Source: a bacterium UBP8_UBA817
GTDB lineage: Bacteria; Margulisbacteria; Marinamargulisbacteria; SXXA01; SICP01
NCBI GenBank assembly: GCA_945898045.1
Contig: CAMDGG010000002.1
Location: forward strand, 19,231 to 83,230
Direction of reading: 5' to 3'
DNA length: 64,000 bases
Below the pieces are notes generated by a model that ran no database searches, had not been told where the DNA came from, and was given only the letters and a program-made list of their open reading frames with translations. Made by a program: the position numbers and the translations under genes. This document shows positions 13,028 through 63,757 of this stretch, piece after piece (the first letter of the stretch is position 1; each line of letters starts with the position of its first letter).

Positions 13028-13037
13028 GTTTAGGCTA

Positions 13038-13883: not shown

Positions 13884-14628
13884 AACTATCACACTCATTG
13901 GCTACTACGGCGCAGGCAACCCCGGCGACGATTGGCTAGAACGTCAAAGCGTTTCCCTCATAAAAGAATACGCCCCAAATGCAACCTGCCATCACCACCA
14001 GAGCAAACACAAAATACGCACGTTTTTCTCAATCTTAAAATGCGACACCGTTATTTTTGGTGGCGGCAGCCTTTTCCAAGATCATACGTCCCGAAAAAGT
14101 CTCTACTATTACCTTACGCTCCTAACATGTTCCCTTCTTCTACGCAAAAAAACGATACTTCTGGGCCACGGCTTTTCACCTTTTCAGTATCCCCTCTCCA
14201 AAATAATCGCCGCTTTCCTACTCAAAAAAATCCATAAAATAACCGTTCGAGACAAGGAAAGCTTCGCCTACTGCAAAACGCTAAACATACCCGAACACAA
14301 ACTCCATTTAGCAAGTGACCTCGCCTACTACAAAGCCACTATCACTTCGTGCTCAGATAAGCCTCTCGTCATTGCATCCCGATATCACGTCTGCGTCTGG
14401 GCAAGTCTCCACCAAATTCCATTTTTGGCACTCGCATATGACGATAAACTGATTAACCTAGCAACGGTACTCCAGCAACCCTACATAGATACCAGGAATC
14501 CATACACACAACACGACTTCCAAGAAAAAGTCTCTGATCTACAAAATAATTTCACTCAGTATCAAAATCAACTCAAACACCAAGTACCCCGCTTAATCCA
14601 ACGTTCAGAAAACAACAAACTTTCATGA
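13861..14628 (+). CDS. Polysaccharide pyruvyl transferase (CsaB-like)
   Basis: LIGYYGAGNPGDDWL, the pyruvyl-transferase family motif. Confidence 0.6.
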   Translation: MTEQLTSKTITLIGYYGAGNPGDDWLERQSVSLIKEYAPNATCHHHQSKHKIRTFFSILKCDTVIFGGGSLFQDHTSRKSLYYYLTLLTCSLLLRKKTILLGHGFSPFQYPLSKIIAAFLLKKIHKITVRDKESFAYCKTLNIPEHKLHLASDLAYYKATITSCSDKPLVIASRYHVCVWASLHQIPFLALAYDDKLINLATVLQQPYIDTRNPYTQHDFQEKVSDLQNNFTQYQNQLKHQVPRLIQRSENNKLS

Positions 14629-15302
14629 TCACAGTCCCCGTCTTAAACTACGCCGTTACCAACACCACCCTCTCCGAACTTCTCCGAACAGTCCCCAATA
14701 GTCTTGCCGAACCCAAATTCCATACGCTAATCACCCTCAACCCCCAAATCATCATGGCCGCAGAAAAAGACCCCTCCATCGCAAAATTACTTCACGCCAG
14801 CATCCTAATCCCAGACAGCATCGGAATTCTTTGGGCAGCCAAAGAAAAGCTTACCCAAATTCCAGGGGTCGAACTCACCGAAACCCTTCTTAAAAGTTCA
14901 TTAAACTGTTACCTCATCGGTAGCCAACCAACGGTACTCACAAAACTTCTAACCCAAATCCAAGCACCCGTTATTGGAAGTCACCACGGTTATTTCAACG
15001 ATGACGAACTCACAAAAATAATCCAAGACATCCAAACAAAAAAACCAGATATTATTCTCGTCGCACTCGGCGTTCCCAAACAAGAACACGTACTAATCCA
15101 ACTCTCAAAATCCCTCACCTATGGTATCGGAATCGGAGTCGGCGGCAGTTTCGATATTATCTCAGGAACCAAAAAACGTGCCCCTGCTTGGGTTATTACC
15201 TGCAACCTAGAATGGCTGTATCGAGGACTCTCTGAACCAAAGCGAATTAAGACCTGGGGTTATTTATTGCAATTCATTGGACGCGTCATAAAAAACGGTT
15301 GA
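14625..15302 (+). CDS. WecG/TagA/CpsF-family glycosyltransferase
   Basis: KKPDIILVALGVPKQE and GVGGSFDIISG...RAPAW...LEWLYRL. Confidence 0.75.
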   Translation: MITVPVLNYAVTNTTLSELLRTVPNSLAEPKFHTLITLNPQIIMAAEKDPSIAKLLHASILIPDSIGILWAAKEKLTQIPGVELTETLLKSSLNCYLIGSQPTVLTKLLTQIQAPVIGSHHGYFNDDELTKIIQDIQTKKPDIILVALGVPKQEHVLIQLSKSLTYGIGIGVGGSFDIISGTKKRAPAWVITCNLEWLYRGLSEPKRIKTWGYLLQFIGRVIKNG

Positions 15303-46792: not shown

Positions 46793-48034
46793 ATGCAGAA
46801 TTTATTAATTACAGATTTTATCCCACACCGATATCCCTTTTTACTCATCGACGCACTGATCGAATGGGAAAACCGCAAACGCGCCGTAGGCATCAAAAAT
46901 ATTTCCCTCATGGACCCTTGGATGCAAGGACATTTCCCACAACATCCCATCATGCCAGCAAGTATGATCATTGAAGCTATGGCCCAAACAGCCGCCACAA
47001 TCTTCTCAAAAGACCCAGAATTTTCTACCCAACTTCCACTCTACGACGAACTCAAAAATGTACACTTCAAAAAATCAGCCTACGCCGGCGATCAGCTCAG
47101 ACTTGAAACAGACGTCATTAAGCTCAAACCCAATGAAATTAGCGTAGAAGCCAAGGCATTGGTAGACGGAAAAGTCATCGCAGAATGTACATTCATCTAC
47201 GCTATGACCAGCAAAGCATCTCGCCCACACATTCATCCCACCGCCTCTGTTCACGCGTCTGCCAGCCTCGGAAAAGACGTCGTCGTCGGCCCGTACACCA
47301 TGATCGGCGAAAACGTGATCATTGGAGACCGAACCGTTTTGGAAGCCAATATTTTGATCGAACGCGATACGCAAATTGGCGAAGATTGTCACGTCCATTT
47401 TGGCACGGTGATTGGCTCCAACGCACAAGATTTAAAATACAAAGGCGAACGCACCGCCGTTATTATTGGTGATCGAAACGACATTCGAGAATACGTCACC
47501 ATTAACCGATCTACAGGCAAAGACACGTCCACGGTTATAGGCTCAGACAATATTTTCATGACCAGTGTCCACATCGGACATAATTGCGTCCTTGGAAATA
47601 ACATTATTATTGCAAACACCTGCAACCTTGCTGGCCACTGTTTTGTAGAAGATCGGGCCATTATTGGCGGCATGACCGGCATCCATCAATTTACCCGCAT
47701 TGGCAAAGGGGCCATGGTCGGCGGATACTCACGCATTACACAAGATATAGCGCCCTTTACATTGTGCGAAGGCAATCCGGCTGTAATCCGAAATATCAAC
47801 GCAATCGGGCTCAAACGTAGCGGATCTTCTGCTAGCGAAATCACCGAAATCAAACACATCTTCCGAACTATTTTCAGGTCCAACAAAGTATTTTCAGAAG
47901 CAAAAAAAGATGTGCAAGCACTCACACCAATATCTGAAAACGCCAAACATTTAATCGATTTTTGCTTAGCCGATTCGCCTCGAGGCCTAACCCTCAAAAA
48001 AGAAGCATCCGACACAGAAACCATAACCGATTAA
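46793..48034 (+). CDS. Apparent FabZ-LpxA fusion (3-hydroxyacyl-ACP dehydratase fused to UDP-GlcNAc O-acyltransferase)
   Basis: N-terminal FabZ hot-dog region (ITDFIPHRYPFLLID, GHFPQHPIMPASMIIEAMAQ) runs without a stop into an LpxA hexapeptide-repeat region with an LpxA-like C-terminal helical domain. Confidence 0.75.
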   Translation: MQNLLITDFIPHRYPFLLIDALIEWENRKRAVGIKNISLMDPWMQGHFPQHPIMPASMIIEAMAQTAATIFSKDPEFSTQLPLYDELKNVHFKKSAYAGDQLRLETDVIKLKPNEISVEAKALVDGKVIAECTFIYAMTSKASRPHIHPTASVHASASLGKDVVVGPYTMIGENVIIGDRTVLEANILIERDTQIGEDCHVHFGTVIGSNAQDLKYKGERTAVIIGDRNDIREYVTINRSTGKDTSTVIGSDNIFMTSVHIGHNCVLGNNIIIANTCNLAGHCFVEDRAIIGGMTGIHQFTRIGKGAMVGGYSRITQDIAPFTLCEGNPAVIRNINAIGLKRSGSSASEITEIKHIFRTIFRSNKVFSEAKKDVQALTPISENAKHLIDFCLADSPRGLTLKKEASDTETITD

Positions 48035-48035
48035 G

Positions 48036-49139
48036 ATGCAAAACCTACTAATTATCGCCGGAGAAGTATCGGGCGACCAATACGCCAGCAAGCTTGCCGA
48101 AACCCTAAAAAAACGAGATCCTCAACTAAATCTCCACGGCATCGGAGGCACACAACTTAAAGCCCAAACAGACCACTTCGTCTACGAAAGCGCTTACTCC
48201 CATGCCATGGGAAATTGGGAACATTGGAAAAAAAGACATCAAACCAAAATTCTGTTAGAAGCCCTCGAAACCTATCTCAAAACCACCCCTATCGACAAAG
48301 CCATTCTCATTGATTTTCAACATGCCAATTTCCAAATTGCTACTATTCTCCAAAAATATAACATTCCGATCTACACGTTTATCAGCCCCAACTTTTGGAT
48401 CTGGAATGACACCCGGAGCGCCAAAAAAATTGCCAAATACAGCCACACCATTTTCACCATTTTTGAACAAGAATATCAGCTCTATCACCCACTCCATCCC
48501 AGAGTCTATTATTTCGGACATCCGCTTCTATCACTTCGTCCACCCATGACAGATCCTACGCAAACTAAAAATCGCCACACCCTCACACTATTTCCTGGCT
48601 CCAGAGACCAAGAAATTCACTACCACTTTCCAGCCATGCTTAAAACCATACAAATCCTACAAAAAAATCAGGCTACTCATCCCATCCAAATAGCCGTCAT
48701 GAATCCCACCATACGAAAATTGATCAATCACTATCTCAAAAAATATCCCATTCAAAACGTACAATTTAAAGACGCTACATCACCCGATCTCCTGACAGAC
48801 ACAATGCTACTTCTCTGCGTCGCGGGAACTGTCACGCTCGAAGCGTTACTTACCTACACCCCCATGATCGTTTTAGGCGCTGTCTCCCCTATCACATTCT
48901 GGCTTGGAACCCATATCCTTAGAGTCAAACTCCCCCGAATTGCGCTCCCGAACATCGTCATGGAACAAACCATCATTCCAGAATTTATACAAAATTTTGA
49001 TCCCGAAAAAATTGCAGAAACCATAACAAAACTAGACACTAAAATGCTGGATCGCTATCCAGAAATCCTCAAAAAATTCACCAAAGATCCCAACCCGTTT
49101 GAAAGTATCGCCACAGTACTCTTAAAGGAGAAATCATGA
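48036..49139 (+). CDS. lpxB: Lipid-A-disaccharide synthase
   Basis: N-terminus MQNLLIIAGEVSGDQYASKL and the GT19 pattern. Confidence 0.85.
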   Translation: MQNLLIIAGEVSGDQYASKLAETLKKRDPQLNLHGIGGTQLKAQTDHFVYESAYSHAMGNWEHWKKRHQTKILLEALETYLKTTPIDKAILIDFQHANFQIATILQKYNIPIYTFISPNFWIWNDTRSAKKIAKYSHTIFTIFEQEYQLYHPLHPRVYYFGHPLLSLRPPMTDPTQTKNRHTLTLFPGSRDQEIHYHFPAMLKTIQILQKNQATHPIQIAVMNPTIRKLINHYLKKYPIQNVQFKDATSPDLLTDTMLLLCVAGTVTLEALLTYTPMIVLGAVSPITFWLGTHILRVKLPRIALPNIVMEQTIIPEFIQNFDPEKIAETITKLDTKMLDRYPEILKKFTKDPNPFESIATVLLKEKS

Positions 49140-49483
49140 ACCTTAAAACATTTACCCTTGTTGAACTCTGCATTGTACTCAGCGTCATAGGCATATTGGC
49201 CATTATTATCGTCCCGAAAGTCGCTTCAACCACAAAAGAAACCAATCAAAAAGCACATAAATTTCAACGACAATTTATTAATACACAGCTCGAACTCTAT
49301 CACTTTCAAAACAATACATTCCCGATTCCAAGCGGAAATTTATCCGCATGGACCGACAATTTTAAGGATTATTTTCCGCAAGGGGTTCCCACAAAAGATG
49401 TCTACGGATATGATTGGGAAATCAATGCCCATGGCCAAGTAAACCTAGACGCCATGGAAGCCAAACACGGCAAACTCGAATAA
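49136..49483 (+). CDS. Prepilin-type (type IV pilin or pseudopilin-like) protein
   Basis: N-terminal FTLVELCIVLSVIGILAIIIVP matches the prepilin cleavage and methylation motif, with Glu at +5. Coupled to lpxB (ATGA). Confidence 0.6.
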   Translation: MNLKTFTLVELCIVLSVIGILAIIIVPKVASTTKETNQKAHKFQRQFINTQLELYHFQNNTFPIPSGNLSAWTDNFKDYFPQGVPTKDVYGYDWEINAHGQVNLDAMEAKHGKLE

Positions 49484-49511
49484 ATTACCAGACAAGACCA
49501 AGGAGATTATT

Positions 49512-50156
49512 ATGCAATTTTTCATCGATACAGCAGACATCAGCGCCATTAAAAAAGCCAACGACATGGGCCTAGTTGACGGCGTTACGACCAACCCCAC
49601 CCTCATCAAAAAAGCAGGCCGCGATCACGAAGCCACTATCAGAGAAATAAGCGACCTCATCTCAGGCCCAGTCTCTGTAGAAACCATCAGCGAAGATGCT
49701 GCAGGCATGCTAAAAGAAGCCAAAACCTACCTCAAATGGGGCAAAAATATCGTCATCAAAGTCATTATGTCCCCAGAAGGCATGAAAGCCGTCCGCGAAC
49801 TCTCCAGCCAAGGCCACAAAACCAACGTCACCCTCTGCTTCTCCCCACTCCAAGCCCTCATCGCAGCCAAAGCCGGCGCCACCTACATCTCTCCCTTCGT
49901 CGGCAGACTCGACGACATCAGCCACTACGGCATGGAACTCATTTCTCAAATCCGCGACATCTACGACAACTACGAATTCGACACCCAAATCCTAGTCGCC
50001 AGCGTCAGAAGCCCCATCCACCTACTAGACGCTGCAACCATCGGAGCAGACGTGGCCACAGTTCCACCCGCAACCCTCATGCAAATCTTTAATCATCCGC
50101 TAACAGAAAGTGGGATTAAAGCATTTTTGGAAGATGCGAAGGCTTGGCAGAAATAG
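49512..50156 (+). CDS. Transaldolase-family fructose-6-phosphate aldolase/transaldolase (Fsa/TalC type)
   Basis: MQFFIDTADISAIKKANDMGLVDGVTTNPTLI; 214 aa. Confidence 0.85.
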   Translation: MQFFIDTADISAIKKANDMGLVDGVTTNPTLIKKAGRDHEATIREISDLISGPVSVETISEDAAGMLKEAKTYLKWGKNIVIKVIMSPEGMKAVRELSSQGHKTNVTLCFSPLQALIAAKAGATYISPFVGRLDDISHYGMELISQIRDIYDNYEFDTQILVASVRSPIHLLDAATIGADVATVPPATLMQIFNHPLTESGIKAFLEDAKAWQK

Positions 50157-50235
50157 GATTGCAATCCTAATAAATAGACGTTTTAATAGGATCGCACTAC
50201 GTTAATACACGAAAAAGAAAACCTCAAGAAAGAAT

Positions 50236-51198
50236 CTAAAATGTTAACCCAGGCATATACTTACTTGGATGGAGAGTTCTTTCAATTTCATCCAAGTACT
50301 TTTTTAAAATAAATTGAGCCAAGTTTTGTGAAGTAAATTCCCTATTATTTTTAGAGTCTGATTGCCAAACATATTGCTCTGAATCACTTAAAAAAAAGTC
50401 GAATTCAAAACTTTCATCCACAACAGGATCACCATAGCGGCCCTGTCTTATACCGCCCTTCCAAAACTCTATTTTCAATTTTGATTTCTCAAGAGTGTTA
50501 AGATAGTTATGCATCCAAGTGACGCCTAAAGAGCAATAATTCAAACAAATTATTTGCAAATTATTTTCAGCGTGTTTGCTGTTTATTGTAACATCAACAC
50601 TAAGTGAAACGTCAGACTGCCATTGGGTAATAAATTCATTTTTTAACTTTTGAAATTCTGCATTTGCAGCGTTTACTCCATCTATTGAATTTCGCAATCT
50701 CTCTCTTATAAATTTGAGATTCATTGCACGATCCAAACGTTTTGATCGATCCTCCAGAGATTCTTCCCTAACCTCTCCCCCAAGCCTCTGGATATTCGCC
50801 TCAATAACCCCCACAGCTCTTTCAAGACCAAACCTCTTTAAATTAACCCATAGTTTATTGTTTGGGACCCACTTAGGAACAGAAGACAACTCATCCAAGG
50901 GCATAAAAATCACAAAATCAAACCCGTGATCATGGGCTCGATTACGAATAGCCGTTTCTTCGATACGAGTCCAAGACGTTTGTCCCCATTCCTTTCTATA
51001 CAAAACTATTACTAAGCGAGATTCCTCTCCAAAAACCGCATTAAAAAGCTTCTCTCCATCACCGCCAGCAAGATCTTCTTGTCGTTTCGAATAATGAAAA
51101 ACCATATACCTATCTTGCAAAAGATCCGCAAGTTTAGTGGCTAAAGATTCATCCTCAGCTAAAAAGGAAAATGCAATATCATACTTATATTCCGTCAC
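50236..51198 (-). CDS. TIR-domain protein with a ~180 aa uncharacterised C-terminal domain
   Basis: N-terminus KYDIAFSFLAEDESLATKLADLL...VF matches the bacterial TIR start (YDVFISY..ED). A candidate catalytic Glu lies in EESRLVIVLYRKEW. Confidence 0.6.
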   Translation of the reverse strand: MTEYKYDIAFSFLAEDESLATKLADLLQDRYMVFHYSKRQEDLAGGDGEKLFNAVFGEESRLVIVLYRKEWGQTSWTRIEETAIRNRAHDHGFDFVIFMPLDELSSVPKWVPNNKLWVNLKRFGLERAVGVIEANIQRLGGEVREESLEDRSKRLDRAMNLKFIRERLRNSIDGVNAANAEFQKLKNEFITQWQSDVSLSVDVTINSKHAENNLQIICLNYCSLGVTWMHNYLNTLEKSKLKIEFWKGGIRQGRYGDPVVDESFEFDFFLSDSEQYVWQSDSKNNREFTSQNLAQFILKKYLDEIERTLHPSKYMPGLTF

Positions 51199-51830
51199 TA
51201 CTTCACCTCAGGCCGCAACCACAAACTAATCGATAACAACCGAGGCAAAAACGAAACAGTCGCTTTCTCTGGTGCCAGAAAAACCTGTTTCGTTTTACCA
51301 TCGGGCATCGGCACCAAGACGGCAGATTTCATCAACTGAGGCCCTGCAAAAATCAAAGGCTTTTTGTAAAACGTCGCCATATCCAAACGCGCAAAATTAA
51401 TCCGTTGTCCCAACACATCAAAATACAAATCTACAAACGCATTCTTCGGCGAAAGTTGTATCAAATTCTGAGCCACATTATACGTCACGACCAAAGACCC
51501 TTTCGCTTCACTATTAGTTCCCAATAATCCCATATTTACCGCAACATTCGCCGTAAAAAAAGCGTCGTTATTCAAAAACTGAATCTTAGGATTTTTAACC
51601 GTCCAATGCGCCTTACCAGACAACATCGGAACATTCACAGTCGTCGATCCAGAAATCGGCCCCATCGCAGATAACAGGGCATTCACTAGCGTTTCATCCA
51701 CCGAAAACACAACCGATGGAGGTCTTGAAATGGGTTGCACAACCAAACTATTGGCAGTTGGCATAATAATTTGGCCATAGGTACCAACCGAAAAAATAGT
51801 CAGACTTAGGATAAGTAAAAGTTTTCTCAC
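51198..51830 (-). CDS. Hypothetical secreted protein or lipoprotein
   Basis: Signal peptide MRKLLLILSLTIFSVGTYGQ. Abuts the valS stop and shares a start/stop overlap with the TIR gene. Confidence 0.45.
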   Translation of the reverse strand: MRKLLLILSLTIFSVGTYGQIIMPTANSLVVQPISRPPSVVFSVDETLVNALLSAMGPISGSTTVNVPMLSGKAHWTVKNPKIQFLNNDAFFTANVAVNMGLLGTNSEAKGSLVVTYNVAQNLIQLSPKNAFVDLYFDVLGQRINFARLDMATFYKKPLIFAGPQLMKSAVLVPMPDGKTKQVFLAPEKATVSFLPRLLSISLWLRPEVK

Positions 51831-54391
51831 AACTCTACAATCACATCCAATTCAGAAGTAGAAACAACCATCTCATACACTTCAACCACACCCGCCAAAA
51901 CAACATCTCCCATCGCAAGAAACACCCTATCTAACGCATCCTGCGAGCCAGAAATAGTCAATTTTTTCACGGGATATTTCAAACTTTGTTTGTTTTCAGA
52001 TTTAGCACCGCGAATTTCACCCATCACGAAAGCCGCAGAGTCCATAACAAGCGACAACACATCCGACGAAACCCCAGACCATTCCGATACACTTGGCCAA
52101 CTCGCCCGATGTATCGACCCGCCATCCGAAAACCGCCAAGACCAAATCTCTTCAGTCACATACGGTAAAAACGGAGCAAATAATCGCAAAAATAATCGCA
52201 ACGCTTCCTGCAACGTCGCAAGAGCAGACAACCGTTTTGCTTCGTCCGTCTCACGATATGCCCGCACTTTTACTAACTCAATATACTGATCACAAAAATA
52301 CCAAAATCCAGACTCCGACAACTCCAAACACGCCGCATAATCCAGCGTCTCAAAAGCCCGCGTTGCCTTAATAACCAATTCCCGTAATTTTTGCAAATAC
52401 GCCACATCCACCGGCTGCGTAATCTGATCCGCAGTCGGCTTTTCATCCCCCAACTGCAACATCACAAACTTACTCGCATTAAACAATTTCGTCGCAAGCT
52501 TCTGACCCATCTGAAAAATCGTTTCTTCAAACGCTGTATCCACGCCCAACCGCGCCCGTGTCGCCCAATACCGCACAGCATCCGACGAATACTGATCCAA
52601 CAACGCATTCGGCGTGACAACATTCCCTTTTGACTTACTCATTTTTTTACGATCTGGATCCAACACCCAGCCACTAATCACCACATGTTTCCAAGGAATT
52701 TCCTGATGATGCATCCACGCTTTCGTAATCGTATAAAACGCCCACGTCCGAATAATCTCATGCGACTGCGGACGAATATCCATCGGGAAAATTTTGGCGT
52801 GTCGATCGTTATTCGGCCACTGACTCGCTATCTGAGGGGTCAACGACGACGTCGCCCATGTATCCATTACATCCGGATCACCCATAAACCCATTAGGCTT
52901 CCCACGTTGGTCTTCTGTAAACCCATCTGGCACATCCGACATTGGATCAACCGGAAGCTGCTCTTCACGCGCAAAAATCGGCTTTGCATAATCCGGATTT
53001 CCCAACGCATCCATCGGATACCAAACCGGAAACGACACCCCAAAAAACCGCTGACGACTAATACACCAATCTTGATTCAATCCCTCTACCCAATTCTGAT
53101 ATCGGGCCTTCATAAAACTAGGATGCCATTCAATCTTATCGCCCTGTTTCACAAGCGCTTCTTTATGCTCCAAAATCCGCACAAACCATTGGCGCGTCTT
53201 CATAAACTCAAGCGGAGAATCTCCCTTTTCATAAAACTTTACGGGGTGCTCAATGATCTCCAAAGGCTGCATCATTGCACCAGATTCCGCCAACAACTCA
53301 GCAATTTTCGTCTGTGCTTGCTTCACCCGAAGACCTTCTAAAGGCGCATACCACTTGGCAGCTGTTTCTGCGTCTACACTTTCAAACGGTGCCTGCGTAA
53401 AATCAACGGGCAACATGCGACCATTCGCACCAATCACCTGCTTAATCGGCAAAGACTGTTGCTTCCACCACGCAACGTCCGCGGCATCTCCAAACGTACA
53501 TACCATCAAAATCCCACTACCCTTTTCAGGATCAGCATGAGTCGATGCCAAAATAGGAACACGCGCACCAAATAACGGCGTAACCGCAAACTTTCCAAAT
53601 AAGTCTTTATATCGGACATCATCCGGATGCGCCACAACCGCAATACAAGCGGGCAACAATTCTGGACGCGTCGTCGCAATCATAAAATCACCACCGTGTT
53701 CCACGTGAAACTGCACATGATGATACGCCCCAGGACGTGGCCGATCTTCTACTTCAGCCTGGGCAACCGCCGTCCGAAAATCCACATCCCACATCGTCGG
53801 AGATTCCACCTGATATACAAACCCTTTCTTAGCCATTTCCAAAAACGAATACTGGCTCACACGCTGACAATGCCGATCAATCGTCGCATATTGCAACGAC
53901 CAATCCACCGACAATCCCAACTGTCGCCACATCGACTCAAACGCCTGCTCATCTTCGGCAGTTAAAATCCGACACGCATCAATAAAATTACGACGAGACA
54001 CCGGCACTAGCGGCCCATCTTTCACACGTTTTTCAGGCATCCAAGCCGGCTCATAAGCCAACGTCGGATCGCACGTAATCCCAAAAACATTCTGCACCCG
54101 ACGCTCTGTCGGCAATCCATTATCATCCCAACCCATCGGATAAAAAACCGACTTTCCACACATACGCTGATACCGCGCCAACACGTCCGTCTGCGTATAA
54201 CTAAATACATGTCCCACATGCAACGATCCCGAAACAGTAGGCGGCGGTGTATCTACCGAAAACGTATTCTCACGATCCGCACTAGAATCCCATTTATATA
54301 CATCAGACTCATCCCAAACTTGTTGCCATTTTTTTTCAATCGAACCATGTTCATAACGCGCAGGTAATTCAGTCATAATAATCCTCTTCAA
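51827..54391 (-). CDS. valS: Valine--tRNA ligase (archaeal or short type)
   Basis: Class I HIGH motif SGSLHVGH, KMSKS motif, YPMGWDDNGLPTE, 854 aa. Confidence 0.75.
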   Translation of the reverse strand: MKRIIMTELPARYEHGSIEKKWQQVWDESDVYKWDSSADRENTFSVDTPPPTVSGSLHVGHVFSYTQTDVLARYQRMCGKSVFYPMGWDDNGLPTERRVQNVFGITCDPTLAYEPAWMPEKRVKDGPLVPVSRRNFIDACRILTAEDEQAFESMWRQLGLSVDWSLQYATIDRHCQRVSQYSFLEMAKKGFVYQVESPTMWDVDFRTAVAQAEVEDRPRPGAYHHVQFHVEHGGDFMIATTRPELLPACIAVVAHPDDVRYKDLFGKFAVTPLFGARVPILASTHADPEKGSGILMVCTFGDAADVAWWKQQSLPIKQVIGANGRMLPVDFTQAPFESVDAETAAKWYAPLEGLRVKQAQTKIAELLAESGAMMQPLEIIEHPVKFYEKGDSPLEFMKTRQWFVRILEHKEALVKQGDKIEWHPSFMKARYQNWVEGLNQDWCISRQRFFGVSFPVWYPMDALGNPDYAKPIFAREEQLPVDPMSDVPDGFTEDQRGKPNGFMGDPDVMDTWATSSLTPQIASQWPNNDRHAKIFPMDIRPQSHEIIRTWAFYTITKAWMHHQEIPWKHVVISGWVLDPDRKKMSKSKGNVVTPNALLDQYSSDAVRYWATRARLGVDTAFEETIFQMGQKLATKLFNASKFVMLQLGDEKPTADQITQPVDVAYLQKLRELVIKATRAFETLDYAACLELSESGFWYFCDQYIELVKVRAYRETDEAKRLSALATLQEALRLFLRLFAPFLPYVTEEIWSWRFSDGGSIHRASWPSVSEWSGVSSDVLSLVMDSAAFVMGEIRGAKSENKQSLKYPVKKLTISGSQDALDRVFLAMGDVVLAGVVEVYEMVVSTSELDVIVEL

Positions 54392-54465
54392 CTCAAAAAT
54401 TGATACGTCATCTTATTGTGACTGAGTAATTTCTTCAAATAAAAAGCACTTTCAGAATATGGAAT

Positions 54466-55833
54466 TTGCCAGAACACATATGGACAAAACATATTAAAAT
54501 GCCATTTTATGAGAAAAAAATTCATTTTTATAAATTTAGTGATATAATCCAGCCCATGTTAGTAGAATTCTCAGCGAAAAACTTTAGATCCATCAACGAA
54601 AAACAAACTATATCCTTTTTACCGGTTAAGGCCAAAAGCTCTGGGATAGAAAAAGGTGAGCTCCCAAATAATATCACTTCAGAAAGTATCCCACTTCTTA
54701 AAACTATCATTCTTTTCGGAAAAAATGCTTCCGGAAAAAGCAACCTACTAAAAGCCATCCGGCGACTACAAATATTAGTTATACAATCTGGGTCAATTTC
54801 ACCAGAAACAAAAATACCTTACGACCCATTTAAACTTGATAAAAACAAAACAAATGAATCTACAACTTTCGAAATTAAATTTCTCATTAAAGAAACTGTT
54901 TTTAGATATAAAATTGTCTTCAATCAAACGCAATTTTTACTAGAAGAACTATACAGCAACAAAGCCAAATTATTTGTGCGTCACCATGGAAAAACCATCA
55001 ATTTTGGACCGTCTCTACATGGACCAAAAAAAGCCATTGAAAAATTAACTGGGGAAAACCAACTATTTTTGTCAAAAGCCGGAACAAACAATTTTGAGGA
55101 ATTTAAAGAAATTTATCATTTTCTAACCTCTATCAATATCCGAATAAATATTTCAGACGAGATCCATAAAAGCTGGGATTACTACCTCGATAACTTAGCT
55201 AAAGCAATACCACAAAAAACGGCAGAACAATTTATTATCAATATATTAAAAGCTGCCGACGTAGGCATTGAATCTTTCGGTTATAAAAAAAGAGAAGAAA
55301 AAGAGTTTAAATTCCCAGAAGGAATGCCTGAAGATATAAAAGAGACCATCCTTTCTCAAAACAGACTAGCCTTAAAAACAATTCACAAAAGATTCGCAAA
55401 CGGGGACGAAGAAGACACGACGGATTTTGCAATAGAAGAAGAATCTGACGGAACACTCATGTTCCTAAAAACTACCATAAGAACTCTAATTAGTATTTCT
55501 ACAGGCTCCCCATTAATAATCGATGAACTTGACATCAATTTACATCCAAAGTTAGTTGAAGTTATTCTCGATCTATTTCATAGCCAAAACAACAAAAATG
55601 GCCAGTTAATATTTACAACACACAACACATTGTTTTTATCAAAAAAATATTTTCGTAGAGATCAAATATATTTCGCAGACAAAGAAGAAAATGGTTCCAG
55701 TGAATTCTATTCTTTAGCAGCAATTGAAGGCATTCGCCCAGACGCCCCTTACGACAAATGGTATATGAGCGGGAAGTTTGGTGCAGTACCTCTGACAAGC
55801 ATAGAAGAAATAACAAATAACTTCATTACATGA
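54466..55833 (+). CDS. AAA_21/AAA_15-type ATPase (AbiLi-like, OLD-family ATPase module). The likely true start is MLVEFSAKNFRSI at ~54556.
   Basis: Walker A FGKNASGKSNLL; C-terminal Walker B LIIDELDINLHP; conserved N-terminal NFRS motif. Confidence 0.7.
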   Translation: MPEHIWTKHIKMPFYEKKIHFYKFSDIIQPMLVEFSAKNFRSINEKQTISFLPVKAKSSGIEKGELPNNITSESIPLLKTIILFGKNASGKSNLLKAIRRLQILVIQSGSISPETKIPYDPFKLDKNKTNESTTFEIKFLIKETVFRYKIVFNQTQFLLEELYSNKAKLFVRHHGKTINFGPSLHGPKKAIEKLTGENQLFLSKAGTNNFEEFKEIYHFLTSINIRINISDEIHKSWDYYLDNLAKAIPQKTAEQFIINILKAADVGIESFGYKKREEKEFKFPEGMPEDIKETILSQNRLALKTIHKRFANGDEEDTTDFAIEEESDGTLMFLKTTIRTLISISTGSPLIIDELDINLHPKLVEVILDLFHSQNNKNGQLIFTTHNTLFLSKKYFRRDQIYFADKEENGSSEFYSLAAIEGIRPDAPYDKWYMSGKFGAVPLTSIEEITNNFIT

Positions 55834-56405
55834 CCCAATATCGAAAAGAAAAAAAACGCCCCCTCAAGAAACAATTCCTAATATTATGCGAAGGCGAAAC
55901 AGAAGTTTTGTATTTTAAAACATTCAGAAAAGAAAACAGAGTTAAATTATCTGCAGTTGACGTTATTCCATACAAACCTATTAACCATGACCCAAATGGC
56001 CTTGTAGAACAAGCTATCAAAGAGAAAAAAAAAGGTGAGTACGAAAAAATCTGGGTTGTTTTTGATAGAGATTGCCATCACAAAATAGATACCGCTCAGA
56101 AAAAAGCGCAAGTAAATAAGATCAATATTGCATACTCAAACATATGCTTTGAATTTTGGATCTTGCTCCACTTTGAGGAAACTTCAAGAGCATTCAGAAG
56201 TAAAGACGAATTAGTCAAATACTTAAAAAAAGAACATAATCATGCAAAAGACATTAACCATTACGATAAATTAAAACCAAATATGAAATTGGCTATAGAA
56301 CGAGCTAAGAAACTAAAAAAAGAAAATCAAAAAACAACACTCACTTTCGAAACAAACCCACAAACTAATATTCACGAAATCATTACTGACCTTCTCGATT
56401 GTTAA
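55830..56405 (+). CDS. RloB-like protein (AbiLii-like, Toprim-related)
   Basis: N-terminal FLILCEGETEVLYF (the RloB ILIVCEGEKTEpnYF motif) and VVFDRD. Coupled to the ATPase gene (ATGA). Confidence 0.65.
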   Translation: MTQYRKEKKRPLKKQFLILCEGETEVLYFKTFRKENRVKLSAVDVIPYKPINHDPNGLVEQAIKEKKKGEYEKIWVVFDRDCHHKIDTAQKKAQVNKINIAYSNICFEFWILLHFEETSRAFRSKDELVKYLKKEHNHAKDINHYDKLKPNMKLAIERAKKLKKENQKTTLTFETNPQTNIHEIITDLLDC

Positions 56406-56408
56406 AAA

Positions 56409-57554
56409 ATGACTCTACAAAACCCCGCACATCTCCTACAAAATCTCGCCTACCAAAAAGGCATTAACTACGACCTATCCAACTTTCAAAAAACGCTCGC
56501 CTCTTTCAACAACCCACACCACGCACTCAAAAACATCATCCACATCGCCGGCACCAACGGCAAAGGCTCCACGCTCACCTTCATCTCCTCCGCGCTACAA
56601 GATCTAGGCTACACCGTCGGCACCTACACCTCCCCCCACATTCACTCGTATTGCGAGCGCATCCAAATTAATAACACGCCTATCTCCGAAAAAGACTTTT
56701 CTCGATTTTTCGAAAAAGCCAGAGAATCTAACGCCCTCCAAACAGAATTTGAAGTATTAACCTTAATGGCATTTCTCTATTTCCAAGAAAAAAATCCGGA
56801 CTACTGCATCATCGAAACCGGCCTCGGCGGTAGACTCGACGCAACCAACATCGTCACCCCCATCCTCTCCATTATCACCAAAATCGGCCTAGACCACGAA
56901 GCCATACTCGGCAACACCATCGAAAAAATCGCCACAGAAAAAGCAGGCATCCTCAAGCCCCCAATCCCCGCCATCACCATCCAACAAAATCCATCTGTAC
57001 TCGCTATTTTTAAAAAATCGCACCCCAACATCCAAATAATTCCGGCGCTTACAACCCTCCCAAAAAACCTCCACATGCAAGGCCTCTATCAAAAAGAAAA
57101 CCTAGCACTCGCCCAAGCCGCCCTAAATCACTTGCACCCAGACGCCAAACCGAACTTCCAAAAAGCTCACATCTGGGGACGATTCGAACGCAAAGAAATT
57201 AACGGTCAAAACTGGATCATCGACGCTGCCCACAACCCCGACGGCATCGACGCCCTCATCCAAACGCTAACCCACCACTACCCCAACCAAAAATTCACCT
57301 TCATCACCAGCATCCTAAAAACAAAAAATGCAGGCGAAATTCTCTCCCGTCTCGCACCCCACGCCCTATCTATCCACTACTGCTGTTTCGACCCCCAACT
57401 CGCCCACCATTACAAAGACATTCAATCTCTTGTCCCTCATCTAAAAATCAAAGAAATCGATCTCCAAAAAATCCCAAAAATCCCAATTAAAAATCCAGTG
57501 CTAACAGGCTCGATCTACTTCATTAGCCATGTTACTCTATACCTACTACCATGA
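56409..57554 (+). CDS. folC: Folylpolyglutamate synthase/dihydrofolate synthase
   Basis: P-loop IAGTNGKGST and Mur-ligase-family motifs. Confidence 0.85.
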   Translation: MTLQNPAHLLQNLAYQKGINYDLSNFQKTLASFNNPHHALKNIIHIAGTNGKGSTLTFISSALQDLGYTVGTYTSPHIHSYCERIQINNTPISEKDFSRFFEKARESNALQTEFEVLTLMAFLYFQEKNPDYCIIETGLGGRLDATNIVTPILSIITKIGLDHEAILGNTIEKIATEKAGILKPPIPAITIQQNPSVLAIFKKSHPNIQIIPALTTLPKNLHMQGLYQKENLALAQAALNHLHPDAKPNFQKAHIWGRFERKEINGQNWIIDAAHNPDGIDALIQTLTHHYPNQKFTFITSILKTKNAGEILSRLAPHALSIHYCCFDPQLAHHYKDIQSLVPHLKIKEIDLQKIPKIPIKNPVLTGSIYFISHVTLYLLP

Positions 57555-57847
57555 ACAAAAAGTCCAAACATATACGACGCTTTATTCTGACCTATGTTGT
57601 CATTGCTTTACTAGCCATTTTGGGTTTAAACGTCACGATAAAAACACTCGCAATCAATAAAAAGATGCTCGACACTCAAAAGCAAATCACGCTGATTAGA
57701 GACGAAAATAAAACGGCCCTTTTGCAGATTCTTGCAGAGACTTCATTAGATAAAATTGAAAGTGTAGCCACCGAAAAACTCCACATGGAACTACCTAAAA
57801 AAATCGACTACCTCTACATACTACCCAAAAAAAATGACCCCAAATAA
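57551..57847 (+). CDS. ftsL: FtsL-like cell-division protein
   Basis: Small bitopic protein with a single transmembrane segment and a coiled-coil, immediately upstream of ftsI. Confidence 0.55.
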   Translation: MNKKSKHIRRFILTYVVIALLAILGLNVTIKTLAINKKMLDTQKQITLIRDENKTALLQILAETSLDKIESVATEKLHMELPKKIDYLYILPKKNDPK

Positions 57848-59555
57848 AAACAGAGTTCAAGTCTACAAACTCGGCTTCGCGCTGATCATCTGCATCCTCA
57901 TCACACGCCTCGCTTTTCTACAAATTTTCAACCACGATTTTTATAAAAAAAAATCAGAAAGCGAACTCAATAAAATTGTTCAGATCTACCCCAATCGCGG
58001 CAATATTTACGATCAAAATAAAGTCCCGCTCGCCATTACGCGTACCGCCTATTCTGTCTATATGAATCGCAAAGAAATAGACGGCCCCGAAAAAACAGCC
58101 CAAACCCTCAGCACCTATCTCAAAATCCCCTATAGCGAACTCTATGCCAAAATAAATAGCAGAGGAAATTTCGTCTGGATTAAACGTAAAATTACTAAAG
58201 AAATCTATCAAGCACTCAGAAAAGAAGACTTAGAGGGCATCTATTTTGTCAAAGACGAAGAGCGCATCTACCCTTTCCAAAACATAGCCAGTGACATCCT
58301 CGGATATGTAGGAAACGACAACCAAGGCCTAGGCGGACTCGAACACTACTACGACAAAATCCTCAAAGGCACCCCCGGGAAAATTGCTTTCGAAGGCGAC
58401 GCCAGACGCAATAGACTCATCACCGGAAAACTAGAAACCCTCCAACATCCTTACGATGGTAGCCACATCATCACCACCCTCGACTACTACGTCCAATACG
58501 TCACACAGAAATACCTCAAAGAAAACGTCGTTAAAAACAGAGCCGATAAAGGCTCAGCCATCGTCATAGACATCAAAACCGGCGACATCCTAGCCATGTC
58601 CGACTACCCAGATTTCAACGCCAATAGCTGGAAAGAAAATGCCATCGGCACAAGAAAAAACAGCAGCGTCAGCGATGTTTATGAACCAGGCTCTATTTTC
58701 AAGCTCATCACGGTCTCAGCCGCCTTAAATGAAGGCCTCGTCAAACCAGACACCGTCATCACCGTTCCAGAAACACTCACGCTCTATAACCACACCATCA
58801 AAGAAGCACACCGTCGCCCTGCAGGACAAACTAATCAAAAAACTGTCTCGCAAATTATCGAAGAATCCCTCAATGTCGGCACGGCATTATTAGGTCAAAA
58901 ACTTGGCAAAGAAAAATTATATGCCTACATCAAAGCATTCGGCATTGGCAATAAAACCGGCGTAGAACTTCCGGGAGAATCCCAAGGCATGTTTAGACAA
59001 CTTAAAAACTGGAGCGGGCTTGACCTCTCCATTATGTCATTCGGACAAGGCGTCGCCGTCACCCCCATTCAAATCGCACGCGCCGTCGCCACCATCGCAA
59101 ACGACGGCATCTTAGTTGAGCCCCATATCGTGAAATACATCACCGATAGCGAAGAAAAAACCTTGCGGAGCCCCATAAAAGATCGTCCACAACGTATCAT
59201 CAGCAGCCAAACGGCCAAAGTCGTCACCAAAATCATGACCCAAACCGTTGATCAAGGCACCGGAATGATCACCAAAATAGACGGCTACAAAATTGCAGGT
59301 AAAACCGGAACCGCTCAAAAATCAGGCGGCCATGGCTATGAAATGGGCCGATACGTCGCCTCATTCATCGGCTTCTTCCCAGCAGAAAAACCCCGATTCC
59401 TCATACTCGTCTCCATCGACTCCCCCCGAGCCAGCATCTACGGCTCCAGCGTCGCGGGCCCAGCGTTTAGAGACATCGCAAAATCGCTCATCGACCACTA
59501 CAACATTCCGCCAAGCTATACACCGTCACCCAATCTAACCGCGAAAAAGCCCTAA
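57834..59555 (+). CDS. ftsI: Peptidoglycan D,D-transpeptidase (PBP3-type)
   Basis: Active-site SIFK (SxxK) and KTGTAQ (KTG) motifs; N-terminal transmembrane segment. Confidence 0.85.
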   Translation: MTPNKNRVQVYKLGFALIICILITRLAFLQIFNHDFYKKKSESELNKIVQIYPNRGNIYDQNKVPLAITRTAYSVYMNRKEIDGPEKTAQTLSTYLKIPYSELYAKINSRGNFVWIKRKITKEIYQALRKEDLEGIYFVKDEERIYPFQNIASDILGYVGNDNQGLGGLEHYYDKILKGTPGKIAFEGDARRNRLITGKLETLQHPYDGSHIITTLDYYVQYVTQKYLKENVVKNRADKGSAIVIDIKTGDILAMSDYPDFNANSWKENAIGTRKNSSVSDVYEPGSIFKLITVSAALNEGLVKPDTVITVPETLTLYNHTIKEAHRRPAGQTNQKTVSQIIEESLNVGTALLGQKLGKEKLYAYIKAFGIGNKTGVELPGESQGMFRQLKNWSGLDLSIMSFGQGVAVTPIQIARAVATIANDGILVEPHIVKYITDSEEKTLRSPIKDRPQRIISSQTAKVVTKIMTQTVDQGTGMITKIDGYKIAGKTGTAQKSGGHGYEMGRYVASFIGFFPAEKPRFLILVSIDSPRASIYGSSVAGPAFRDIAKSLIDHYNIPPSYTPSPNLTAKKP

Positions 59556-59559
59556 ACCA

Positions 59560-60849
59560 ATGACAACCCTAGAATGGACACCCGAACTACTCCAGATTTT
59601 AGAAATCATGGAAAAAACAAAAGAGTCTCTCTTTCTAACCGGCCGAGCAGGCACCGGAAAATCTACCCTACTCACACACTTTAGATCGCGAACCCAAAAA
59701 AAAGCAGTCGTCCTCGCTCCCACCGGTGTCGCCGCTTTAAATGTCAGAGGCGAAACCATCCATTCTTTTTTTAGATTTGGTACCACAGTGACTCCCGAAA
59801 GCGCATTAAAAGCCGCCTCAAAAATAAAAAAAACAGACCTCTACGAAGCCATAGAAACTCTCATCATCGATGAGATCTCAATGGTCCGCGCCGACCTCTT
59901 CGACTGCGTAGATATTTTTCTAAGAACCGTCTGCAAAACCTCAGAACCCTTTGGTGGCAAACAAGTTATCCTCATTGGCGATCTGATGCAACTCCCGCCC
60001 ATCATCACCCGAGACGAAAAAGATTATTTTGACGACTTATACGATACCCCCTACTTCTTCTCTTCTCACGTCATGAACAACCCCCTCTTTGACTGTAAAA
60101 AGATAGAAATGGAACGCGTATTTCGACAACAAGATCCCCTGTTTATCGAATGTCTCAATCATATTCGCAACAACACCCTCTCTCCACATAATCTGAAAGT
60201 CTTGAATCAAAAATGTTACAACCCCACCTTCAAATGGCAAGAAGGCTTCGTCTTCCTCACCACAACCAACCAAAAAGCAGAAACGTTTAATCAAAAAAAA
60301 CTAGATACTTTAGACGGACAAGCCTTCTCCCAACAAGCCAAACTATCCAAAGAATTTGAATCAAAATACGCCCCCGCAGAACTAGAAGTTCAGTTTAAAA
60401 TAGGCGCCCAAGTCATGTTTCTAAACAACGACAGCGGCTCACGCTGGGTAAACGGAAGCATCGGCACCATCTGCGCAATCGATCAGGACTCCGAAGTTTC
60501 CGTCATCGAAGTAGAACTCAAAACCGGCGCACATGTCTACGTCACACCACACACCTGGGAGCTCTATAAATATAAATTTGATACCGAGAAAAAAACCGTC
60601 GCACAAGAAAAAATCGGCGAATTCACCCAATATCCCCTCAAGCTCGCCTGGGCCATGACCATACACAAAAGCCAAGGGAAAACATTCGATAAAGTCATGA
60701 TCGACCTCTCCGCAGGCGCCTTCGCATCCGGGCAAACCTACGTCGCACTCAGTCGCTGCCGTAGCATAGAAGGACTCGTACTCACCTACCCATTAAAAGG
60801 GTCCCATATTTTTGTGGATGAACGGGTTAAGCAGTTTATAAACAGTTAA
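59560..60849 (+). CDS. Pif1/RecD-family SF1B helicase
   Basis: Walker A GRAGTGKSTLL, VLAPTGVAALNV, IIDEISMV, and C-terminal IHKSQGKTFDKV...ALSRCRS. Confidence 0.8.
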   Translation: MTTLEWTPELLQILEIMEKTKESLFLTGRAGTGKSTLLTHFRSRTQKKAVVLAPTGVAALNVRGETIHSFFRFGTTVTPESALKAASKIKKTDLYEAIETLIIDEISMVRADLFDCVDIFLRTVCKTSEPFGGKQVILIGDLMQLPPIITRDEKDYFDDLYDTPYFFSSHVMNNPLFDCKKIEMERVFRQQDPLFIECLNHIRNNTLSPHNLKVLNQKCYNPTFKWQEGFVFLTTTNQKAETFNQKKLDTLDGQAFSQQAKLSKEFESKYAPAELEVQFKIGAQVMFLNNDSGSRWVNGSIGTICAIDQDSEVSVIEVELKTGAHVYVTPHTWELYKYKFDTEKKTVAQEKIGEFTQYPLKLAWAMTIHKSQGKTFDKVMIDLSAGAFASGQTYVALSRCRSIEGLVLTYPLKGSHIFVDERVKQFINS

Positions 60850-60873
60850 AGCTAGGTCCAGCCAGGAACTAAA

Positions 60874-60991
60874 ACTACCCCGTCTCACCTTTGGTGATCC
60901 ACCCCTTCACAGAAGGGGAATTCAACAAACACGTATCTCCAAAAATTCCCCTCTAGTAGAGGGGTGGCACGAAGTGACGGGGTGTTATCTA
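60874..60991. repeat. Structured ~118 bp MITE-like repeat, copy A. Terminal inverted repeat CCCCGTCTCAC...GTGACGGGG with two internal hairpins (CCCCTTCACAGAAGGGG and CCCCTCTAGTAGAGGGG).
   Basis: About 90% identical to copy B at 61418-61544. On the minus strand the second hairpin is followed by AATTTTT, so it could act as an intrinsic terminator. Confidence 0.75.
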
Positions 60992-60996
60992 AATCT

Positions 60997-61413
60997 CTAA
61001 CCAATCAACTCACTCTCCAAACGCTCCAAAACCCCAACTAAATTATTTTTCACATCCCTATCCAGCACATGAACAACTCTTAACCCCAACCCCTCCAAAT
61101 AAGCATCCCTTTCAGCATCATACTCTTGCTTATCATCATGACTCCCGCCATCAATTTCAATAATAACCCCCAAATTTTTACAATAAAAATCCACAATATA
61201 ATGACCAATTATTTTCTGCCTATCAAAATCTAGATTTAAAAACTGTTTGCTCTTAAGTTTGTTCCAAAGAATCACCTCGGATAAATTACCCACTTTCCGT
61301 AATTCTTTAGCCCTATCTCTCAAATTTGGATTAAATGGTAATTTATACCAAGCATTTACGCCTTCAGATTTGCTGTCCATATTTTGATTCGAAGAATTAA
61401 AACTTTCACGCAC
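60997..61413 (-). CDS. DUF559 (Vsr-like, PD-(D/E)xK endonuclease-fold) protein
   Basis: IVDFYCKNLGVIIEIDGGSHDD...RDAYLEGLGLRVV is the DUF559 pattern. Confidence 0.7.
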   Translation of the reverse strand: MRESFNSSNQNMDSKSEGVNAWYKLPFNPNLRDRAKELRKVGNLSEVILWNKLKSKQFLNLDFDRQKIIGHYIVDFYCKNLGVIIEIDGGSHDDKQEYDAERDAYLEGLGLRVVHVLDRDVKNNLVGVLERLESELIG

Positions 61414-61417
61414 TTAA

Positions 61418-61544
61418 CCACCCCGTCTCACCTAGGCTAAAGCTACGGCGATCCACCCCTTCACAGAAGGGGAATTTAACAAACCCGAATCTCCAAAATT
61501 CCCCTCTAATAGAGGGGTGTCACAAAGTGACGGGGCGTTATCTA
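61418..61544. repeat. Structured MITE-like repeat, copy B
   Basis: See copy A. It ends exactly at the thyA stop codon. Confidence 0.75.
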
Positions 61545-62357
61545 TCAAATCGCAATCGGAAATCGAATAAACGGATGCGGATCATACCCTTCCAAAGTAA
61601 AATCCTCGAATTCCAACTCAAAAAACGGCTTATTTGTAATTTTGACACTAGGCAAAGTTTTCTCTTCCCGCGTCAATTGTTCTTCCAATCCACCCAAATG
61701 CGTCTGATAAATATGAGCATCTCCCAGCGTATGAACAAAAAATCTTGGGATTAATCCACACTCCTGCGCCACCATCATGAGCAACAACGAATAACTCGCA
61801 ATATTAAACGGCACGCCCACCGCCACATCCGCCGAACGTTGATACAACTGCAAATCCAAATGACCATCCATCGTCACATAAAATTGAAAAAACGCATGAC
61901 ACGGAGGCAACGCCATCTGGTCAATATCCGCCACATTCCACGCACTCACAATAATCCGGCGCGAATGGGGATTGGTTTTAATCGTTTCAATGGCCTGTGC
62001 CAACTGATCAACATGCGTTTTGTGATAAGCCTGAGCCGACTCATCCCAAGTAAATTTATCCCATTTCCGCCACTGATAGCCATAGACCGGACCCAACTCG
62101 CCATCCGGACCAGCCCATGCGTCCCAAATGCCAGAATTAAGCCCGTCTTGCGTATTCGTAGCGCCCTTAATAAACCAAAGCAACTCGTACAACATACTCT
62201 TAAAATAAACTTTTTTTGTAGTTAAAAGAGGAAAGCCCGTCCGCAAATCATGACGCAGCTGGTACCCAAAAACAGACCGCGTTCCCGTCCCCGTCCGATC
62301 CACTTTATTTTCGCCATTTACCAAAATATGCCGAACCAAATCCATGTATGATTTCAT
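61545..62357 (-). CDS. thyA: Thymidylate synthase (likely start MKSYMDL)
   Basis: Motifs RTGTGT and PPCH, C-terminus ...PIAI. Confidence 0.9.
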
Positions 62358-62380
62358 AGAGAAAAACTCTAACATACCGC

Positions 62381-63757
62381 TTGACCTCATACCATAGCTT
62401 CTTTATCCTGGAACCAATGAAACCAGCAAACCCCTACGCACAAATCTTTATAGATGACGGACTTGGATCCAAAGCAAAAGCCCGTTACAAAGCCAGACGC
62501 GATCATCTCGCAACACTCATAGGTCACCCCATTGTACTCACCGGAATCGAAAACGGTCCCGGACATCCCCATCACTGGGCCATGCTTTCCAGCTTCATCT
62601 TTCAAGAACCCCTCATGCTCTATCTCACCGGCATCAATCAAACCGGCATTGCGCTCGTCCTAGATCCACATACCAACGAAGAATTTTTATTCATCGACAA
62701 AAAAGATCCCAAAAAAGAATTTTGGGAAGGCCTTCGATTTGGTGTTGGCTCCGAAGAGAATGCCCTCGAAATAGAAACCCAAACCGGTTTTAAAAATAGC
62801 CTGCCGAGACGACAACTCTCTACCTTCCTAAAGCGTTATTTTCAAAATCCCCTCTTCACCTTTTGGAACGAATCTTCAGACGGCGAAACACTCAAAGACC
62901 ACCATTGGGATTTCAAAAAAAAGCTACGTCCATTCCATCCCTATAACATTGCCCCCATCTATCAACCCGATCGCATTTTACTAGACAACCAAGACGAAAA
63001 TAACCTCACGGTCGCCAATCAAAAAACAACCGAAAGCTTCTTAAATAGTCTACAAAACATGCACACTTTTAAAACAGAATCCGACGTCGCAGCCCACCTA
63101 CACTACCAACTCCTCAAACACAGCCACTTCGGACTCAGCTTCCCAAGCATCGTCGCATCAGGCAAAAACGCCACCGTCTTACATTACACCCGCAACACAG
63201 ACCCCCTCGACAAAACCCAGCTTCTCCTCCTTGATTTTGGTGCACGCTGGCAACAAATGCATGCAGACATCAGCCGAACTATCCCTCTATCCGGCACCTT
63301 CAATCCCCTCCAAAAAATACTCTATCAAATCGTTTTAGACGCCCAAGACGTCGTCGAGAAACTAGCTAAGCCCGGCATCACCATCAAGTCACTCAACGAA
63401 GCGTGCTGGACATTTATCAACCAAGAACTCAAAAAACTAATCACCCAAAAAGGTGGCAAAATCTCCCTCGCTTACAAAAAAGCGCCGCATAATGTCAGTC
63501 ATCTACTCGGCACCCAAGTCCACGACGGAGACCCCTTCCGAGAATACAGAGACACGCCCCTAGTCGCAGGAAATTGCATCACAAACGAACCCGGAATCTA
63601 CGGCCATTTCGCTATCACGCTCAACAAAAAATCCTACAACGAATACATCGGCATTCGCATCGAAGACAATCTCCTGATTACAAAAAACGGCTGCAAAAAC
63701 CTAAGTAAAGACTGTCCAAAAACAATCTCAGAAATCGAATCTCTTCTAAAGGGATAA
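62381..63757 (+). CDS. Xaa-Pro aminopeptidase (M24B)
   Basis: HYTRN...LLLDFGA...HADISRT...NEPGIY...IRIEDN metal-ligand pattern. Confidence 0.8.

Follow-up and report, generated by a model that had tools for sequence, protein, structure and literature searches.

The stretch of DNA analysed here, called the window below, comprises 64,000 nucleotides from the bacterium UBP8_UBA817 of the Margulisbacteria (assembly GCA_945898045.1, contig CAMDGG010000002.1, positions 19,231 to 83,230), and it carries a pair of genes resembling the abortive-infection system AbiL. Both are encoded on the + strand: the first (54556-55833) specifies an AbiLi-type ABC / AAA_21 ATPase of 425 aa, assigned from Pfam, PADLOC and an alignment of homologues, and the second (55830-56405) a 191-aa protein of the AbiLii / RloB family, a predicted Toprim-like nuclease effector according to Pfam, PADLOC and an AlphaFold2 (AF2) model. 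The stop codon of the ATPase gene and the start codon of the RloB gene share an ATGA overlap (55830-55833, +), so that the two genes are translationally coupled. The pair is flanked by valS (51827-54391, -; Pfam tRNA-synt_1 6e-84 and Anticodon_1) and by folC (56409-57554, +; TIGR01499 folC 1.3e-89), the ATG of which lies 3 nt past the RloB stop codon TAA. An earlier note, made from the letters of the sequence, had placed the pair between these two genes and described it as divergent from valS; the coordinates and strands agree with that description. We consider it probable that the two genes are functional and were acquired horizontally as a two-gene anti-phage module of the AbiL type.

The longest open reading frame (ORF) of the ATPase runs on the + strand from TTG 54466 to 55833 and would encode 455 aa, and the earlier note had given 54466-56405 as the span of the module. 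Its end at 56405 holds, while its start does not, as the ATPase is better begun further downstream. All 18 homologues in the alignment begin at the residue aligned with M31 (MLVEF...), and the start was therefore placed at ATG 54556, giving 425 aa; from the aligned sequences, this ATG and not TTG 54466 is most likely the true start. The gene calls of public assemblies list the ATPase with either 444 or 425 aa.

The same note had proposed an AAA_21-type ATPase coupled to a RloB-family protein, in the architecture of AbiLi/AbiLii, and both proposals are borne out. Each of the two ORFs is intact, and the ATPase matches the Pfam family AAA_21 (6.5e-28) and the PADLOC model AbiLi (4.7e-79), with a generic AAA_21-like AriA model in second place (1e-27). 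The RloB protein matches the full Pfam RloB model (2.5e-40, positions 1-195), and AbiLii is its sole PADLOC match (3.4e-28). Neither protein has an NCBIfam model above the cutoff. Motifs read from the ATPase gene on the + strand include Walker A (GKNASGKS, 54718-54741), an ABC-like signature (ESDGT, 55441-55455), Walker B (LIIDEL, 55513-55530) and an H-loop (TTHN, 55615-55626); these four and a FRRDQ motif are invariant in the alignment of 18 homologues. The RloB gene, likewise on the + strand, contains CEGETE (55887-55904), VVFDRD (56055-56072) and CFEFWILLH (56145-56171), and it keeps the invariant or near-invariant residues of its family: E21, G22 and E25 in the first motif, D79 in the second, and C106, F107, E108, L112, L113 and H114 in the third. 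Both ORFs are full length compared with their homologues. Since the motifs and family residues are all kept, both genes look functional at the sequence level. A decaying, non-functional remnant of an old transfer would agree with the lack of a recognisable Shine-Dalgarno sequence or strong consensus promoter and with closest homologues of only about 40% identity; however, the full-length ORFs, the retention of every invariant or near-invariant family residue and the identical sequence in at least six samples make such a remnant very unlikely.

Assignment to AbiL was based on the PADLOC hidden Markov models (HMMs). The first protein is an AbiLi-class ATPase with intact nucleotide-binding motifs, the second belongs to AbiLii/RloB, and their genes adjoin each other in the same direction, the ATPase gene upstream, with a 4-nt overlap. 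The locus is thus a divergent member of the known AbiL family, with no feature outside what is known of it. As in the AbiLi and AbiLii of Lactococcus lactis (Deng et al., 1999; PADLOC and DefenseFinder models), the two genes lie on one strand with the ATPase first and RloB second; the proteins match the AbiLi and AbiLii HMMs best, and the gene sizes are similar. Unlike lactococcal AbiL, the pair resides on the chromosome of an uncultured member of the Margulisiibacteriota rather than on a lactococcal plasmid, and the closest database homologues of its proteins are 40-42% identical.

The history of the locus was read from its closest relative, a Lake Baikal metagenome-assembled genome of Candidatus Margulisiibacteriota (SICP01000009.1; L006 below). 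It was found by a valS scan of one genome per GTDB species, in which it was the only close genome, the other matches being at most 64% identical and from other phyla. Eleven flanking proteins are collinear between L006 and the window at 85-98% identity, and the two valS proteins are 89% identical. In L006, folC starts at 9914 and valS at 10001, with 86 bp between them and neither an ATPase nor a RloB gene. According to alignment and blastn, homology stops at 54460 and restarts at the folC ATG at 56409, which defines an inserted cassette of 1948 bp (54461-56408, +; GC 0.329) that is absent in L006, stands in place of 17 bp of the L006 sequence and reaches right up to the folC ATG, with 0 nt between. 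Of the ancestral intergenic region, the 69 bp nearest to valS (54392-54460, no strand assigned) have been kept nearly identical to L006 and now lie upstream of the cassette. The insert also differs from its surroundings in composition, with GC of 0.329 vs 0.466 in the flanks, GC at third codon positions of 0.29 vs 0.47-0.61 in the flanking genes, and a + strand GC skew of -0.11 to -0.14 vs -0.22 to -0.49.

The arrangement is not a product of assembly. Contigs from at least six samples match the filled haplotype at 99.98-100% identity, with each junction covered by separate contigs; because independent assemblies cross both junctions, the order valS, pair, folC is not an assembly chimera. An apparently different downstream gene in contigs L002 and L005 was rejected: the DNA is identical, and the difference arose from gene calling at the ends of contigs. 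A search for repeats at the ends of the insert found no target-site duplication and no terminal direct or inverted repeats, no integrase or transposase adjoins it, and no mobility gene is nearby. A 17-nt imperfect inverted match between 54327-54343 (the valS 5' end) and 56395-56411 (the RloB stop and folC start) was set aside as no better than chance pairs in A-rich DNA. Rfam recorded no RNA family in 48000-62000. When a 20-nt conserved intergenic pattern was searched against metagenome contigs, 22 loci were returned, comprising 21 chance matches and one locus (L099) identical to the window.

A third relative, L113 (folC 91% identical), carries other DNA of low GC right up against the folC start, and its contig ends before valS. 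Its positions 1-555 hold two small overlapping ORFs of 69 aa and 84 aa, the longer one hydrophobic at its C-terminus; neither Pfam nor PADLOC matches them, and they may be a small toxin-antitoxin (TA)-like or membrane-acting pair. At folC loci further removed (47-68% identity), the neighbours are different and the AbiL-type pair is missing. The site being empty in L006 and occupied by other genes in L113, and the distant loci having other neighbours, the pair is not a conserved partner of folC. The earlier note had proposed a comparison of synteny with relatives, and the absence of the pair in the otherwise syntenic L006 shows that it is not universal beside folC. A role in housekeeping or regulation linked to folC or valS, such as that of an operon partner for folate or tRNA metabolism, would suit the close spacing to folC (a gap of 3 nt without a terminator) and the core-gene surroundings. 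The empty site of L006, with 86 bp separating valS from folC, in effect refutes it, and it also runs against the unrelated small ORFs of L113, the distant folC loci without the pair, the foreign composition, and the homologous pairs in unrelated contexts and on mobile elements; it can be considered next to impossible. The pair is instead accessory and compositionally foreign, and it was probably acquired horizontally.

Homologues of the pair are found in several other settings. The closest ones are 42% identical for RloB and 40% for the ATPase, and those with names are mostly from Bacteroidota. An AAA_21 ATPase gene lies directly upstream of the RloB homologue on the same strand in all four loci inspected, in unrelated contexts, the two genes overlapping by up to 14 nt or standing up to 6 nt apart. 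In Limosilactobacillus, the pair adjoins a SIR2-HerA pair and a transposase. A tblastn search of PLSDB returned 73 plasmid records with a RloB homologue, 46 of them mobilizable, and no Lactococcus was among the organisms listed. Many of these plasmids are enterobacterial and 3.5-5.3 kb in size; the annotated genes of one 3916-bp E. coli plasmid are the ATPase, RloB and rop only. Five phage records carry RloB, including a P2-like prophage of Klebsiella, where the pair sits between the replication endonuclease and portal genes, a slot that we presume to resemble the one housing old and PARIS in P2. The plasmid and prophage copies keep the order of ATPase upstream and RloB downstream, and in PADLOC both the E. 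coli plasmid pair and the Klebsiella prophage pair score as AbiLi/AbiLii.

The small plasmids also bring in another explanation, namely that the pair is chiefly a type II TA addiction module, with RloB as toxin and the ATPase as antitoxin, which acts by post-segregational killing and has no phage-defence role here. Mobilizable plasmids of 3.5-5.3 kb that carry little beyond the pair would fit such a module, and insertion right before an essential gene would also stabilise it. According to PMC10440598, NetFlax places pairs of an AAA ATPase and RloB/TOPRIM_OLD in the type II TA network, and ATPase-neutralised toxins were validated. Lactococcal AbiL, on the other hand, has a phenotype of abortive infection (Deng, 1999, according to PMC13064643 and PMC10440598). 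The homologous pair between the replication endonuclease and portal genes of a P2-like prophage and the enrichment of other defence genes in the present neighbourhood likewise speak against addiction as the chief role. TA behaviour and defence can, moreover, coexist, as in PARIS. We regard a pure addiction module as rather unlikely, yet the most serious of the competing explanations.

A mechanism for the AbiL-type reading was drawn up by analogy with PARIS (AriA/AriB) and P2 OLD. An oligomer of the AbiLi ATPase would bind AbiLii/RloB and hold it inactive, serving as infection sensor and antitoxin at once. A phage-derived cue would then alter the conformation of the ATPase, so that the Toprim-like RloB nuclease would be freed or activated and would cut host and/or phage nucleic acid, with tRNA or other RNA as the likeliest target and DNA as the alternative. 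The infected cell would cease to support phage growth, that is, undergo abortive infection. AbiL has been placed among the systems of an ABC ATPase plus TOPRIM (PMC11464382), and the literature sets it beside PARIS and MADS as a split system of this type; lactococcal AbiL acts after phage transcription (PMC13064643). AriB and P2 OLD are tRNases, which an ATPase assembly releases or unlocks. AAA ATPases neutralise their cognate toxins, TOPRIM_OLD toxins included, in the TA assays of PMC10440598; beside such pairs, one validated toxin, left unspecified in the passage, showed the labelling pattern of translation inhibition. A literature search on defence systems in Margulisbacteria found nothing relevant.

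PARIS is composed of an AriA ABC ATPase and an AriB DUF4435 Toprim tRNase, and the pair in the window shares with it the split of ABC ATPase from Toprim-type effector (a predicted one in the window), as well as, by analogy, the probable logic of an ATPase sensor and antitoxin with a released nuclease toxin. Both systems occur in P2-like prophages and on mobile elements. They differ in that the effector in the window is RloB (PF13707), with no DUF4435 or AriB match in Pfam or PADLOC, and in that the ATPase scores 1e-27 with the generic AriA model vs 4.7e-79 with AbiLi; published structure predictions also set AbiL apart. A further comparison is offered by the restriction-linked RloA/RloB of Campylobacter, in which the same RloB family occurs with a partner ATPase. 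The pair could by this token be a restriction-modification (R-M) accessory, as in Campylobacter type I hsd loci, that acts as a backup against phage anti-restriction proteins. The RloB family was named after genes inside type I R-M loci, and PARIS, of related architecture, senses anti-restriction proteins. The pair in the window, unlike that in Campylobacter, does not lie in a type I R-M (hsd) locus: it is flanked neither by hsd nor by other R-M genes, its immediate neighbours are valS and folC, with ftsL-like and penicillin-binding protein genes nearby, and the four homologue loci also lack adjacent R-M genes. The R-M explanation is very unlikely for this locus.

The earlier note had further claimed RloB/Toprim homology. 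The RloB part is upheld by strong matches to the RloB and AbiLii profiles, while the matches to the Toprim clan are weak but convergent. An AF2 model of the RloB protein, built with 35 family members, reached a predicted local distance difference test (pLDDT) score of 87.8 and a predicted template modelling (pTM) score of 0.82, with alternating strands and helices. In this model, E21/E25 come directly after strand 1 (residues 16-20) and D79-R-D81 (DxD) directly after strand 3 (residues 73-79). A Glu after strand 1 with a DxD after strand 3 is, as modelled, the arrangement expected for a Toprim domain. At relaxed thresholds, Pfam returned OLD-like_TOPRIM for 8/35 family members, DUF4276 for 6/35, DUF3226 for 5/35 and Toprim for 2/35, and the RloB protein of the window has a weak OLD-like_TOPRIM match spanning the CEGETE region. 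A viral structure library contained one good match, a phage RloB-like protein with a template modelling (TM) score of 0.77. HHpred relates RloB to OLD_TOPRIM (PMC10440598), and AbiLii superimposes on the OLD structure 6NJV (PMC13064643). With the OLD family (P2 Old, and GajA of Gabija), the pair would share an ABC ATPase coupled to a predicted Toprim nuclease, the placement of Glu and DxD in the RloB model, and a weak similarity to the OLD Toprim domain in Foldseek and Pfam; unlike class 1 Old and GajA, its ATPase and nuclease are two polypeptides with a stop/start overlap.

Upstream of the ATPase gene, a candidate extended -10 element of perfect form, TGATATAAT (54540-54548, +), was read from the sequence; it ends 7 nt before ATG 54556, and no Shine-Dalgarno sequence lies upstream of this ATG. 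The cassette may be expressed from TGATATAAT as a leaderless or near-leaderless mRNA. At the other end, a consensus scan listed no terminator-like site on the + strand between RloB and folC. As folC lies 3 nt past the RloB stop and its ancestral upstream region is now 1.95 kb away, transcription of folC probably runs through the cassette.

Several points weigh against the pair being a functional AbiL-type defence module gained by horizontal transfer. The structural comparison gave a weak recovery of a Toprim fold for RloB: a Foldseek search of the RloB model against the PDB gave no match below E = 1e-3, and its top matches belonged to generic three-layer folds. The Burkholderia and Xanthomonas OLD proteins (6nk8_A and 6njv) appeared with their C-terminal (Toprim) regions at E of about 0.05, below significance, 6nk8_A having the highest query TM-score (0.42) among the matches listed. 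When the RloB alignment was run as a profile against PDB sequences, nothing meaningful came up, and no solved structure of the RloB family was found by sequence. The mechanism of AbiL is unknown according to the literature (PMC13064643), and the authors of the PARIS work consider AbiL structurally distinct from PARIS, so mechanistic details may differ from those proposed above. In the DNA, a consensus scan for promoters and terminators performed at chance level and did not list the TGATATAAT site, and folC is probably co-transcribed as the third gene of the cassette operon, judging from the spacing alone. Finally, the direction of gain depends on one empty-site genome, for which deletion in L006 is the alternative; composition argues for gain. 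With these points counted, an acquired and functional AbiL-type module is still the preferred reading.

The position of the cassette allows a more speculative proposal. Insertion exactly between the promoter region and the start codon of folC could make the 5' edge of folC a promoter-proximal, integrase-free hotspot for cassettes, a possibility suggested by the slot being empty in L006 and holding two small ORFs in L113. The essential folC would then depend on transcription through defence genes. The cargo, in turn, would be expressed from a housekeeping promoter and shielded from deletion, since imprecise loss would silence folC. We offer this hotspot as a doubtful, low-probability idea.

The surroundings of valS behave as a small defence island, and the small defence islet suggested by the earlier note is supported by a GC of 0.33 in the pair vs 0.47 and by variable defence genes nearby. 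One of these is a low-GC (0.37) gene at 50236-51198 (-) for a 320-aa protein, the N-terminal ~150 residues of which have a TIR fold. Its AF2 model (pLDDT 88.2) was matched by Foldseek to SPARTA TIR-APAZ, MyD88, MAL, AbTir and ThsB. TIR_2 is matched by 26 of the 31 family members; the family has about 1575 cluster representatives, and the C-terminal domain of the 320-aa protein is beta-rich. No PADLOC model matches the protein, and the gene could be a single-gene TIR defence candidate. In L006, the corresponding slot is occupied by a SoFic gene (13873-14946, +; PADLOC 9.7e-116; Fic_N, Fic and SoFic-like_C; GC 0.34), so that defence cargo is exchanged in a second slot near valS as well. L006 also has, directly after valS, an extra gene for a 178-aa ORF6N protein (12574-13110, +; PDC-S05 candidate, 1.4e-56; GC 0.37) that is absent from the window.

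Further downstream, the window contains a gene for a 127-aa DUF559 protein (Vsr-like endonuclease domain) at about 60997-61380 (-), called in the source contig (L001, 15168-15551). It sits between a PIF1/RecD-like helicase gene (59560-60849) and thyA (61545-62390), which are almost adjacent in L006 and L113; the DUF559 gene is therefore another small strain-specific insertion. The helicase, a 429-aa PIF1/RecD2-like SF1B protein encoded on the + strand, is conserved in L006 and L113. It has partial matches to the helicase modules of the PADLOC candidates PDC-S68 and PDC-M16A, and is probably a core helicase and not a defence gene. Across 48000-62000, and apparently throughout the window, the + strand is very strongly skewed regardless of gene orientation, with a GC skew of about -0.2 to -0.5 and an AT skew of about +0.1 to +0.3; the cumulative skew drops monotonically. 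This probably reflects an unusually strong replication-strand bias in the lineage.

The locus alone opens no new mechanistic question. It extends AbiL, an early-described family with a mechanism still unsolved, to the Margulisiibacteriota, a little-studied phylum and uncultured sister lineage of Cyanobacteria, in a divergent variant that is about 40% identical to anything else in a collection of 5.8 billion proteins. It also provides a clean natural comparison for gene gain, with empty and filled sites defined to the base and a third state in L113. The defence cargo around valS is wholly different between the two genomes, with AbiL and a TIR-domain protein in the window vs SoFic and PDC-S05 in L006, and this contrast can serve studies of how defence islands turn over in uncultured freshwater bacteria.

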